From: an uncultured archaeon
Lineage (GTDB): Archaea > Asgardarchaeota > Heimdallarchaeia > Heimdallarchaeales > Heimdallarchaeaceae
Assembly (NCBI GenBank): GCA_964549075.1
Contig: CAZJUB010000058.1
Span: 1 to 16,563 of the forward strand
Length of the DNA stretch: 16,563 bases
Reading direction: 5' to 3'
Position numbers and translations under genes: made by a program. The notes under the pieces are model-generated. The model was not told the origin of the DNA, searched no databases, and saw only the letters and a list, made by a program, of their open reading frames with translations. Shown one piece after another: positions 4 through 4,420 of the stretch. The number at the start of each line of letters is the position of its first letter. Within the stretch, counting starts at the first letter, position 1.

Positions 4-77
4 AGACCCGTAGTCTAGTGGAAGGATACGGGACTCTGGATCCTGAGACAGGCGTTCAAATCGCCTCGGGTCTACCA
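4..77 (+). tRNA. tRNA-Gln (anticodon CTG)
   Basis: Cloverleaf: acceptor AGACCCG/CGGGTCT, D-stem GTCT/GGAT, anticodon stem CGGGA/TCCTG around loop CT-CTG-GA, T-arm AGGCG-TTCAAAT-CGCCT, discriminator A, encoded CCA. A1-U72 is the archaeal tRNA-Gln hallmark. Confidence 0.97.
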
Positions 78-2997: not shown

Positions 2998-3198
2998 ATG
3001 AGTCGCTATATCACACCCAAAGTAGACGTAAAAGAGCTTCTATTGGTTTCTGAAGAAGAATCAGATATAAAATGTGGAAAATGCAACAAACCGATGATGT
3101 TCACTATTTATTATAAAGATAAAGAATCATATGATTTTCTTGTATGTAAAGACTGCGAAATTTACATGCAAAGAGTAATTGTTGAAGACGATTTCTAG
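2998..3198 (+). CDS. Small zinc-ribbon protein
   Basis: 66 aa with CGKC and CKDC pairs; AGGAG SD and an AT-rich TATA-like element upstream. Confidence 0.75.
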   Translation: MSRYITPKVDVKELLLVSEEESDIKCGKCNKPMMFTIYYKDKESYDFLVCKDCEIYMQRVIVEDDF

Positions 3199-3265
3199 AA
3201 TAATATAGTATTTTTCATCTATCGAAAGTAAACTTAAAAAAGACTATAGGGATTTTAATAAAAAT

Positions 3266-3341
3266 AGCTCCATCGTCTAGTGGCCAAGGATACAGTGATG
3301 TTCTCACTGTGACGGATGTTCGAATCATCCTGGAGCTACCA
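3266..3341 (+). tRNA. Non-canonical tRNA: tRNA-Gln/Glu-like body, GTT at positions 34-36, C37
   Basis: AGCTCCA/TGGAGCT acceptor (A1-U72), GTCT/GGAT D-stem, CAGTG/CACTG anticodon stem around loop ATGTTCT, 4-nt variable loop TGAC, GGATG-TTCGAAT-CATCC T-arm, A73 plus CCA. TATA-like TTAAAAAA about 30 nt upstream. Confidence is for the tRNA fold; amino-acid identity is uncertain. Confidence 0.88.
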
Positions 3342-3342
3342 A

Positions 3343-3356
3343 TTTTCTTTTCTTTT
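3343..3356 (+). terminator. T-rich archaeal terminator after the tRNA
   Basis: TTTTCTTTTCTTTT directly after CCA. Confidence 0.55.
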
Positions 3357-3402
3357 ATGGTATAATTTCTCTCTTTCTTTCAAACACTACTCGTGCGATA
3401 TC

Positions 3403-3426
3403 TTTATTAATTCTTATTAGAATTAA
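3403..3426 (+). promoter_or_regulatory. TATA box overlapped by a perfect palindrome (putative operator)
   Basis: TTTATTAA at 3403-3410; TTAATTCT-N4-AGAATTAA at 3407-3426. Confidence 0.5.
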
Positions 3427-3440
3427 AAATTACACAAAAT

Positions 3441-3628
3441 GGAGGTGTCATAGACAAAATGAATGCAAGAAGAAATATCACTATAGAACCATTTGTTTGC
3501 ATCCTAAGACATACTATGACATCTCAGGAAAGGTTCTAACCTTCTCCCTTTTGCAACTTTTTTACCTAAGAAATCTCTACAGCAAATGATTCTCTTTTTG
3601 TCTTGACTCTCTATGTGGATGTGATATT
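3441..3628 (+). promoter_or_regulatory. Structured attenuator-like 5' leader of the RIO kinase gene
   Basis: 12-bp stem 3442-3453/3514-3525 (one G-U), inner stem ATGCAA/TTGCAT, hairpin 3527-3547 followed by U-tracts, competing helix TAGAACC 3484-3490/GGTTCTA 3532-3538. Confidence 0.55.
3459..3539 (+). CDS. Putative 26-aa leader peptide MNARRNITIEPFVCILRHTMTSQERF
   Basis: ATG..TAA frame preceded by GGAGGTG (3441-3447) with an 11-nt spacer; too short for the ORF track. Confidence 0.45.
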   Translation: MNARRNITIEPFVCILRHTMTSQERF

Positions 3629-3631
3629 AAA

Positions 3632-4420
3632 GTGCTAAACAAAGAATATTTAGAAAGAAGAGATGGAGCTGGTGTTGAGGAGATCTCTACATCAGAATCT
3701 ATAGCTGAGGCTATAGAAAACGGTTTAATAGCTGAAGCTCGTCAGATAATAGGACAAGGTAAAGAAGCATTTGTTTGTTGGGGTACAGACAATCAAAATC
3801 GCATGGTTGCTGTTAAAACATACAAACTTTTCAAAACCACACATAGAGATGTCATTCACGGTACTTACCGAACTAATCCCTATGTGATTGTTTCCCAATT
3901 TGCTAAACTTGAATATTATAAAAACCTCGACTTATTTCAAGCTAAACTTCCCGTTCCTGAACCTTACAAATATGCTGGTTTCAGTTATTCTATGCAACTG
4001 ATAGGTGATGAAGAAGGTCCTGCACCTTTATTAAGAGATGTAAGTAAGAGCTTTTTTGATGATCCTGCAGATATCCTAGAAGAGTGTATCGATATCTTAT
4101 ATGATATGTTCCAAGCTCATTTTGTTCATGGAGATTTTAGTGAACATAATCTGCTATGGTATGATGAAAAAATACATGTTATCGATTTTCTTCAGACCAA
4201 GCACTTTGCGTTGAAAGATGCTGTTCCTTATGGTTCATCGTTAATTCCACTATCTAGAGCATATAGGATTTTGAAAAAAGATCTCAACTCTCTTCTCCCT
4301 TTCTTCAAGAGGCTATTCAGAATTGAAGTCAACTATGATGAAGTTCTGGAGTATATTTTAGGAGATATAAAAAATAAAATTGATAGAGAACTCGAGCTTA
4401 GTTTAGAAACAAGTTCGTAA
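3632..4420 (+). CDS. RIO-family atypical protein kinase/ATPase (Rio1-like, no wHTH domain)
   Basis: IGQGKEAFV P-loop, AVKTY, VPEP, VHGDFSEHNLL catalytic loop, IDFLQ metal-binding loop; GTG start with GGATGTGA SD. Confidence 0.9.
   Translation: MLNKEYLERRDGAGVEEISTSESIAEAIENGLIAEARQIIGQGKEAFVCWGTDNQNRMVAVKTYKLFKTTHRDVIHGTYRTNPYVIVSQFAKLEYYKNLDLFQAKLPVPEPYKYAGFSYSMQLIGDEEGPAPLLRDVSKSFFDDPADILEECIDILYDMFQAHFVHGDFSEHNLLWYDEKIHVIDFLQTKHFALKDAVPYGSSLIPLSRAYRILKKDLNSLLPFFKRLFRIEVNYDEVLEYILGDIKNKIDRELELSLETSS

Follow-up and report, generated by a model that had tools for sequence, protein, structure and literature searches.

A tRNA-Gln-derived gene in a genus of Heimdallarchaeaceae, probably maintained as a non-decoding RNA

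What becomes of a tRNA gene whose body and anticodon no longer name the same amino acid? The question is raised by a 76-nt gene in a 16,563-nt stretch of DNA (the window, positions 1 to 16,563 of contig CAZJUB010000058.1 in GenBank assembly GCA_964549075.1) from an uncultured archaeon of the Heimdallarchaeaceae. Of the two tRNAs that ARAGORN calls in the window, the one at 4-77 is a tRNA-Gln(ctg); the other, named 'tRNA-Asn(gtt)' and located at 3266-3341, is referred to here as the odd gene and is the subject of this work. An earlier note on the same DNA had described it as an intact tRNA with a Gln/Glu-type body and an aberrant anticodon loop, and had proposed a non-ribosomal or recoding tRNA. 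Comparison with related genomes now makes it probable that the odd gene is a non-decoding tRNA-Gln derivative that is kept by purifying selection. The genome of the window (G000) is assembled into 217 contigs totaling 3.23 Mb at 32% G+C; the window's contig is designated C58, and other Cnn labels refer to further contigs of G000. The comparison set consists of 61 related genomes, 25 of them from the window's genus, grouped by RIO protein identity rather than by a species tree. Save for two single-contig ones, these genomes are in many contigs and 63-96% complete, and a gene not found in one of them is not necessarily absent.

The odd gene has the parts of a complete cloverleaf. Its acceptor stem consists of seven out of seven Watson-Crick pairs, starting from A1-U72, and the gene itself encodes the CCA that comes after A73. 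The D stem (GUCU/GGAU) includes two G.U pairs and closes a D loop of 9 nt, AGUGGCCAA, a length shared with the canonical tRNA-Gln(CUG) of the RIO-side locus (type B), the canonical tRNA-Gln(CUG) at window 4-77 (type A) having 7 nt. The variable loop has four nucleotides, and in the T arm the stem GGAUG/CAUCC, with A51-U63, closes the loop UUCGAAU. A decoding elongator loop has seven nucleotides, U33, a purine at position 37 and an unclosed 32-38 pair, whereas the loop of the odd gene carries GUU at 3300-3302, C37 at 3303, and an A32 and U38 that are able to pair. Together with A26-U44, A32-U38 can lengthen the anticodon stem to 7 bp, with a loop of only 5 nt remaining (ViennaRNA), and the geometry of this loop is unlike that of a decoder. 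The earlier note's description of the stems, CCA, loop, A32-U38 and A51-U63 proved correct at every point checked.

With the Rfam tRNA model RF00005, for which the gathering score is 29 bits, an 86-nt stretch holding the odd gene scores 44.2 bits (E 5.4e-9) across model positions 1-71 of 71, that is, above the gathering score and with a full cloverleaf, but about 17 bits lower than the canonical Gln tRNAs (61.6-62.3 bits). The same model did not report the odd gene in the whole window or in 301 nt, and loci L001, L002 and L004 likewise went unreported in a scan of seven. Since the 86-nt stretch scores 44.2 bits, these misses on longer stretches are losses to the speed filters, and therefore no evidence against a tRNA fold. 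Folded alone, the odd gene has a minimum free energy of -26.6 kcal/mol (z = -2.61 relative to shuffles), and the centroid fold retains the acceptor, anticodon and T arms. An intron-containing, split or permuted tRNA was rejected in view of the 76-nt length and the normal arms, and no bulge-helix-bulge motif was seen on inspection. The contigs of four out of four other sequencing runs (X5-X8), possibly from one sampling campaign, hold 3266-3341 without difference, and the single difference among them within 3000-3700 is a G>A at 3359. The loop, for which the earlier note had asked confirmation in raw reads, is therefore not an assembly error.

The origin of the odd gene is apparent from its neighbors. 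BLAST of the 76 nt gave full-length matches in seven of the genomes (G000 included), all from the same genus, and six of the seven loci are the same locus as judged by their flanks: a 66-aa Zn-ribbon ORF ending about 70-110 nt upstream of the tRNA and, downstream, a conserved small ORF with a strong Shine-Dalgarno sequence followed by the RIO kinase gene. At this same position, four genomes (G017, G012, G022 and G005) carry a canonical tRNA-Gln(CUG), with the loop CUCUGAA in G017 and G012; the G022 and G005 genes were missed by BLAST and found by ARAGORN next to the RIO gene. By synteny, then, the odd gene descends from tRNA-Gln(CUG). It shares with canonical type B its position and flanks, A1-U72, G2-C71, A73-CCA, the D stem GUCU/GGAU, the 4-nt variable loop, the T loop UUCGAAU, and 75-77% BLAST identity over the full length. 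What it lacks is CUG and the loop CUCUGAA, in place of which there are a rebuilt stem, A32-U38 and a pyrimidine at position 37. The synteny with tRNA-Gln(CUG), together with A1-U72 and A73, bears out the earlier note's view of a Gln-type, rather than Asn-type, body.

Odd forms of the gene also occupy this locus in the three genomes closest to G000 by RIO protein identity, G020 (87%), G023 (84%) and G001 (79%), and on metagenome contig L094, which has the same gene order; another metagenome contig, L093, is an exact repeat of the G020 form. The odd RIO-side family thus comprises five sequences, and no two of their loops agree: AUGUUCU in G000, AUGAUCU in G020, AUUUAUU in G023, AGCUUCU (with G33) in L094, and the 8-nt AUAUUUAU in G001. 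Five lineages therefore have five loops, reading GUU, GAU, UUA and CUU plus the 8-nt form, with a pyrimidine at position 37 in all four 7-nt loops, and the names given by ARAGORN vary among Asn, Ile, Stop, '???' and Lys. The anticodon of the odd gene is unconserved, and its Asn anticodon is incidental. As such, the weight that the earlier note had placed on GUU and C37 must be withdrawn, the loop being different in the syntenic genes of four relatives.

The remainder of the anticodon arm has been rebuilt in a consistent manner. Relative to three canonical forms, all five odd forms share the derived states A28, G31-C39, A32, U38, A7-U66 and A51-U63, and remodeling of the arm must therefore predate their split; A1-U72 and A73 are likewise present in all five. 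Positions 32 and 38 are paired as A32-U38 in every odd form and in none of the canonical ones, where they are C32 and A38. Three pairs of the stem (27-43, 29-41 and 31-39) do not vary among the odd forms, while at 30-40 one finds U-A, U.G, A-U and a single G.A mismatch. Variation within the arm is otherwise confined to positions 33-37. Folded alone (ViennaRNA), the odd arms give stems of 6-7 bp (with an internal mismatch in G001) and loops of 3-5 nt, versus a 5-bp stem and a 7-nt loop for the canonical arms.

Outside the anticodon arm the gene has hardly changed. In all ten pairs of the five odd forms, 3-7 of the 59 body positions differ, while the four-fold sites of the RIO kinase gene, a single-gene yardstick with 65-73 such sites per pair, differ by 48-55% among G000, G020, G023 and G001 (saturation being about 66% by base composition). 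At that divergence about 30 differences would be expected in 59 nt of neutral sequence, and the binomial probability of the observed differences, relative to p = 0.5, is at most 7e-10 for each pair. Identity drops to 28-67% over the 150 nt that follow the tRNA. When cloverleaf pairs are counted over all eight forms (five odd, three canonical), the paired cells amount to 94%, and five pairs have changed on both sides; the covariation score of the named cloverleaf was reached by none of 500 shuffles, and controls in which the structure was slid along the sequence pair at 27-48%. The stems have thus been kept by compensatory change, which speaks against plain decay, as the earlier note had argued from a single genome. 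A neutral pseudogene should diverge at the neutral rate and lose its pairing, and the odd family does neither. The tRNA shape and acceptor end of the odd gene are under purifying selection, and because the remodeling predates the divergence of the odd forms, the body has been kept throughout a period in which synonymous sites approached saturation. The earlier note had held that an unconstrained loop among homologs, combined with a lack of expression, would speak against a specialized tRNA; the loop is indeed unconstrained, but the rest of the RNA is strongly constrained.

Could the odd RNA nonetheless decode? The tRNA complement of the genome, as listed by ARAGORN with introns allowed, comprises 36 tRNAs. 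Among them are a canonical, intron-containing tRNA-Asn(GUU) with the loop CUGUUAA and G73 (C76 c10327-10433), an intron-containing tRNA-Gln(UUG) (C87:10920-11024), and the type A tRNA-Gln(CUG), which gives an Rfam match of 61.6 bits over 4-74 and is 97-100% identical in G020, G023 and G001. The separate tRNA-Asn and tRNA-Gln(UUG) that the earlier note had envisaged are therefore both present and, with tRNA-Asn(GUU) and the two Gln isoacceptors supplied in canonical form by other genes, the odd gene is supernumerary. It has A73 and A1-U72, as opposed to the G73, A37 and need for an Asn decoder that would mark a tRNA-Asn, and none of the five odd forms has the anticodon YUG of a working tRNA-Gln. 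An A at position 1 occurs in four of the 36 ARAGORN calls, namely three Gln-type genes and one doubtful, intron-containing Lys call. Whole-length identity is uninformative on isotype, as Gln (55/76 matches) hardly separates from the other tRNAs of the genome (up to 54); only the low value for the canonical tRNA-Asn (41/76, the lowest of those ranked) is clear. Two features of the complement may be recorded in passing. The 3' CCA is encoded in nearly all of the ARAGORN-called genes printed, and introns are common, some of them non-canonically placed, with several intron-containing calls apparently mis-assigned in isotype.

A decoding role could take one of two forms: a Gln- or Glu-charged RNA that misreads Asn codons, or a tRNA whose charging follows its anticodon and which is being remolded to new codons, i.e., those of Asn in G000, Ile in G020, the ochre stop (as a suppressor) in G023, and Lys in L094. 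The intact cloverleaf, CCA and tertiary nucleotides are compatible with either, every 7-nt loop can formally be read as an anticodon, and several synthetases use the anticodon as their main identity element. Nevertheless, the anticodon is unconserved among the syntenic genes, the four 7-nt loops carry a pyrimidine at position 37, at which readers of ANN codons normally have a modified A, and A32-U38 shuts the loop to 5 nt in all five forms. In addition, L094 has G33, the G001 loop has 8 nt, A73 and A1-U72 stand in place of the G73 found in the genome's own tRNA-Asn, and that canonical tRNA-Asn is both present and the least similar of the tRNAs ranked. Without a conserved Asn anticodon, the fixed Gln-for-Asn mistranslator or recoding tRNA of the earlier note is very unlikely; an anticodon-following tRNA in the course of remolding is unlikely as well, and for decoding of any kind we see very little room.

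The sequences that surround the odd gene resemble the signals of a transcribed one. A promoter-like box sits about 25-40 nt upstream of the mature 5' end, and a box of the type RAAA..TTAAAAAA is found at a comparable distance before many other tRNA genes of the genome. The box is kept in L001-L004 while the spacer around it diverges. Likewise, T-rich tracts such as that of the odd gene trail other tRNA genes of G000. In its expression signals, then, the odd gene resembles working tRNA genes, and it would presumably be transcribed from its own promoter, mature in the manner of a tRNA, and serve a role that does not involve an anticodon.

A quite different explanation would have selection act on the DNA or on processing, with the odd gene serving integrating elements as an attachment site, marking a boundary, or directing RNase P/Z to cleave a neighboring transcript. 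tRNA genes are frequent integration sites, as passages of a study of Bacillus cereus note (PMC3399842), and in G001 a 3.7-kb insertion separates the odd tRNA from the RIO gene. Yet a scan of 19 window ORFs gave no match to an integrase, a phage family or any other mobile-element family, the G001 insert consists of two probably secreted or membrane paralogues with no integrase, and two patterns made from the 3' end found no matches in viral contigs. Compensatory changes that tolerate G.U point to selection on RNA pairing rather than on the DNA. Moreover, the odd gene looks monocistronic, having its own promoter-like box and T-tract, and the G001 insertion indicates that the RIO gene needs no adjacent tRNA. 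Such a DNA-level or processing role is scarcely probable. The insert itself, seen only in G001 (L004:1522-3075, L034:3-1259), is made up of two tandem paralogous genes for large, probably secreted and membrane-anchored proteins.

The loss of a tRNA-Gln anticodon is not confined to the RIO-side locus. Seven other genomes of the genus (G010, G013, G006, G024, G009, G011 and G014; L007:1501-1575, L073-L078) carry a 75-nt gene, designated type C, which has a body of the classical archaeal tRNA-Gln(UUG) kind and a disabled anticodon. Its anticodon arm has a 6-bp stem that includes U26-A44 and a 6-nt loop, UUUNGG, in which N is U, C or A. One locus of G011 holds all three genes, with type C flanked by the working tRNA-Gln(UUG) and tRNA-Gln(CUG). 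Five distinct type C sequences are available, and their bodies differ at 0-5 of 57 positions, with 11-57% divergence at four-fold sites; all cells of their cloverleaf are paired, and three pairs have changed on both sides. The seven type C genomes show no tRNA within 1.5 kb of the RIO gene, and BLAST with type C found no match in the four genomes that carry the odd RIO-side gene, such that the two families are complementary in distribution among the genomes examined. Disabling of tRNA-Gln arose again, in a second tRNA-Gln lineage. A similar odd tRNA-Gln-like gene is flanked by the UUG and CUG genes of G026, a genome of another genus (L081:1501-1574); its anticodon stem has 6 bp, its loop reads UUUAU, and A1 and A72 are mismatched. 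A covariance model built from these tRNA sequences was run on the 61 genomes and candidate matches were fetched; as the model was trained on odd forms, odd genes of other types could score lower and be missed.

Several unusual genes of other kinds were also noticed. At the place in G004 that matches that of the G026 gene (L109, C97:135119-135264, minus strand) there is a tRNA-Gln(UUG)-like gene with a T-loop insert and an A1-A72 mismatch that, on a reading of its sequence, is without a clean CCA; ARAGORN makes no call there. The type B tRNA-Gln(CUG) of G008 (L108, C54:3108-3254) has an apparent insert of about 30 nt in its T loop and likewise no ARAGORN call, although the covariance model gives it 79.5 bits over 107 nt. 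In G052, from another family (L130, C207:33167-33262), a tRNA-Gln(UUG) with C33 and the loop CCUUGGA adjoins another UUG gene, which contains an intron. In this class, surplus tRNA-Gln copies with slight aberrations seem to be common.

The most natural objection to a maintained RNA is that a redundant tRNA-Gln(CUG) copy simply died once its anticodon arm had mutated, leaving a pseudogene with a body conserved for other reasons. The copy is indeed redundant, with a working tRNA-Gln(CUG) 3.2 kb away, and its RIO-side ortholog has been lost outright in the seven type C genomes. Several further points weigh on the same side. The odd body differs by 5-12% where the working tRNA-Gln(CUG) of the same genomes differs by 0-3%, and constraint on this faster-changing gene is therefore somewhat relaxed; the D stem has a U13-U22 mismatch in G020 and G001, to which the A1-A72 mismatch of the G026 gene may be added. 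The neutral rate comes from the one RIO gene, and the claim of a free loop from five observations. Of 21 sequencing runs listed as holding the stretch, salt-marsh metagenomes among them, none is on record as RNA, and expression is accordingly presumed. With the covariance model, only two canonical tRNA-Gln genes were found in each of seven genomes (G017, G012, G025, G029, G028, G027 and G030, the last two being the single-contig genomes, both of genus g4), and the feature is therefore lineage-specific and dispensable. Finally, there is no sign of a gene that co-varies with the odd tRNA; GlnRS and the GatE-like gene are present also in genomes without it.

Even so, a plain pseudogene is hard to square with the contrast in rates, that is, 3-7 body differences where about 30 of 59 would be expected under neutrality. 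The stems have been preserved through two-sided changes, the promoter box is retained, and the independently derived type C behaves alike in seven genomes. Conversion by the working copies, which might otherwise account for a conserved body, is unlikely because these differ from the odd gene in length and at many positions. Taken as a whole, a dead copy is a rather improbable explanation, and a non-decoding tRNA-Gln derivative under purifying selection remains the one we favor.

What might such an RNA do? In G001, the genes for GlnRS, tRNA-Gln(UUG), tRNA-Gln(CUG), the odd tRNA and RIO follow one another within 10 kb, and the odd gene therefore belongs to a GlnRS/tRNA-Gln locus. The genus carries two enzymes of the GluRS/GlnRS family. 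In G000, one is a bona fide GlnRS (C87:8926-10851; 676 bits on TIGR00440, for which the cut-off is 426) encoded directly upstream of tRNA-Gln(UUG), an adjacency that recurs in many of these genomes, and the other is an archaeal-type GluRS on C5 (frame holding 72745-73662). Contig C87 ends in tRNA-Gln(UUG), and the window contig begins with tRNA-Gln(CUG); the two are probably neighbors, as in G001, with the assembly break between C87 and C58 probably at the similar tRNA-Gln genes. On C3, a gatE-like gene (61210-63105; 383 bits, TIGR00134) lies beside gatD (63249-64454; 489 bits, TIGR02153), and GlnRS, GluRS and GatDE thus coexist in the genome. GatE scores no more than about 410 bits in all 29 other matching genomes of the window's family, versus best matches of 560-650 bits in families f3, f4 and f6, and f6 has a second copy of about 430 bits. 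This pattern suggests that only a divergent GatE paralogue has been kept in the window's family.

GlnRS is above the curated cut-off in 30 of the 61 genomes. These represent each of the five genera in the window's family, together with f6 and some of f5, but none of f2, f3 or f4. A 2022 review (PMC9499178) states that GlnRS is lacking in all known archaeal lineages; a 2024 preprint mentions GlnRS genes for Hodarchaeales and Kariarchaeaceae. The review also reports that GatDE reads the D loop and A1:U72 of tRNA-Gln. The table of a review of tRNA identity lists no archaeal Glu or Gln identity set. The GluRS identity features cited in the earlier note are bacterial, archaeal GluRS and GlnRS rules not being established, and the presence of a bona fide GlnRS beside the tRNA-Gln genes changes which enzymes could meet the odd RNA.

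The most probable course of events may be outlined. In this Heimdallarchaeota-type genus a further tRNA-Gln(CUG) gene stood immediately before the RIO kinase gene, and it is from this copy that the odd gene descends. Before G000, G020, G023, G001 and the L094 organism diverged, its anticodon stem was rebuilt, A32 and U38 were made pairable, and CUG was lost, with CAG decoding carried by the other copy at window 4-77. Thereafter, the loop core drifted freely while selection kept the acceptor stem, A73-CCA, the D and T arms, the nucleotides of tertiary contacts, the pairing of the anticodon stem, and the promoter box. The product would be an expressed, L-shaped, non-decoding tRNA-like RNA, still recognized by proteins that read the acceptor end and elbow and not the anticodon.

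As the odd RNA retains A1-U72, G2-C71 and A73-CCA as well as the D arm and elbow, it may still bind the Gln-tRNA machinery. The first candidates for a partner would be GatDE, with GluRS and/or GlnRS, and GatDE may be the best of them because it is reported to ignore the anticodon. The RNA could then act on this machinery as a regulator, a decoy, or a non-ribosomal carrier of Glu or Gln. With no co-varying gene, the proposed link comes down to the retained acceptor and D-arm features and the location, and a regulator, decoy or carrier of this kind is a tentative guess. More speculative still, and in our estimation rather doubtful, is the general proposition that Heimdall-group archaea with both routes to Gln-tRNA have at least twice turned a surplus tRNA-Gln into an anticodon-less mimic. 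Such a mimic would dock on GatDE/GluRS or GlnRS via its A1-U72 end and elbow, tuning or partitioning the two pathways or carrying Glu or Gln for use outside the ribosome. It would match, in archaea, the GlnRS-binding mascRNA of mammals, and would be the first conserved non-decoding tRNA described in Archaea.

Table 1. Features of the window that bear on the odd gene.
Feature	Position	Strand	Details	Basis
Canonical tRNA-Gln(CUG), type A	4..77	+	Working CUG isoacceptor, 3.2 kb upstream in the same locus	ARAGORN
Promoter-like box	3224..3242	+	GAAAGTAAACTTAAAAAAG, with inner TTAAAAAA at 3234-3241	Sequence pattern; putative promoter function
tRNA-Gln-derived tRNA-like gene (odd gene)	3266..3341	+	76 nt, CCA encoded; ARAGORN name tRNA-Asn(gtt)	
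Remodeled anticodon arm	3293..3309	+	Stem CAGUG/CACUG, loop AUGUUCU at 3298-3304	Sequence, ViennaRNA
Loop core, positions 34-37	3300..3303	+	G U U C; sole freely varying part among the syntenic genes	
T-rich tract	3343..3356	+	TTTTCTTTTCTTTT, directly after the CCA end	Sequence; putative terminator

The neighbors of the odd gene in the window are of a housekeeping nature. The families scanned, for 19 of the 30 listed ORFs (the other 11 being short or overlapping), include a nucleoside deoxyribosyltransferase-like protein, a cyclophilin-like protein, RIO kinase, prepilin peptidase, NucS, a DAG-kinase-like protein, Alba, a short-chain dehydrogenase, a KaiC-like ATPase and a P-type ATPase. No tRNA-dependent transferase turned up among these 19 ORFs, although no search was aimed at such genes. 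Between the odd tRNA and the RIO gene, a 26-codon ORF (window 3479-3559, + strand) follows a strong GGAGGTG site. This ORF is kept in G020, G023 and G017, starts with MNA and has a T-M-T-[SP] motif near its end, and it may encode a small protein or a leader peptide for RIO.

The locus bears on how the lineage nearest to eukaryotes handles Gln-tRNA formation, which is an open question. Should the odd RNA bind the Gln machinery, the switch from indirect to direct Gln-tRNA formation could be approached directly through it. Even as a relic that is slowly dying, it would serve as a warning for annotation, as the isotype name assigned by ARAGORN differs by species. The comparative signal is a clean one: the loop core is free and the body constrained, the stems show compensatory change, and the origin is repeated. 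A limited search of the open-access literature found no report of a conserved, anticodon-disabled tRNA in Archaea.

Non-decoding tRNA-like RNAs are already known from bacteria (tRNAOther and the non-proteinogenic tRNA-Gly) and from mammals (mascRNA), and each invites comparison. Passages of the Bacillus cereus study describe tRNAOther as a pseudo-tRNA that stands outside translation and has been recruited to another role, and its authors suggest that inactivated tRNA genes can turn into tRNA-like elements with new functions (PMC3399842). As described there, tRNAOther adjoins a genomic island and forms part of longer regulatory transcripts, whereas the odd gene is archaeal, derives from tRNA-Gln, is surrounded by housekeeping genes, and comes with a promoter-like box and T-tract of its own. 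The staphylococcal non-proteinogenic tRNA-Gly are paralogues that donate glycine to cell-wall peptides (PMC4574755), and the earlier note credits them with an extended anticodon stem and a pyrimidine at position 37. They keep GCC or UCC anticodons and are charged by GlyRS. The odd gene keeps no anticodon, and its charging by an anticodon-reading synthetase is therefore doubtful.

The other of the two nearest functional precedents, besides tRNAOther, is mascRNA of mammals, which a review describes as a near-perfect cloverleaf without a conserved anticodon loop, uncharged, that binds GlnRS and increases its stability (PMC9976931). In the odd RNA, the shape, the missing conserved anticodon and purifying selection are observed, while expression, a lack of charging and a partner such as GlnRS or GatDE are putative. 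The origins of the two also differ, mascRNA being cut from the MALAT1 long non-coding RNA and the odd gene being a syntenic descendant of tRNA-Gln. The likeness is thus one of analogy between tRNA mimics that are, or may be, linked to the Gln machinery, and should be taken as a lead rather than as membership in a common class.

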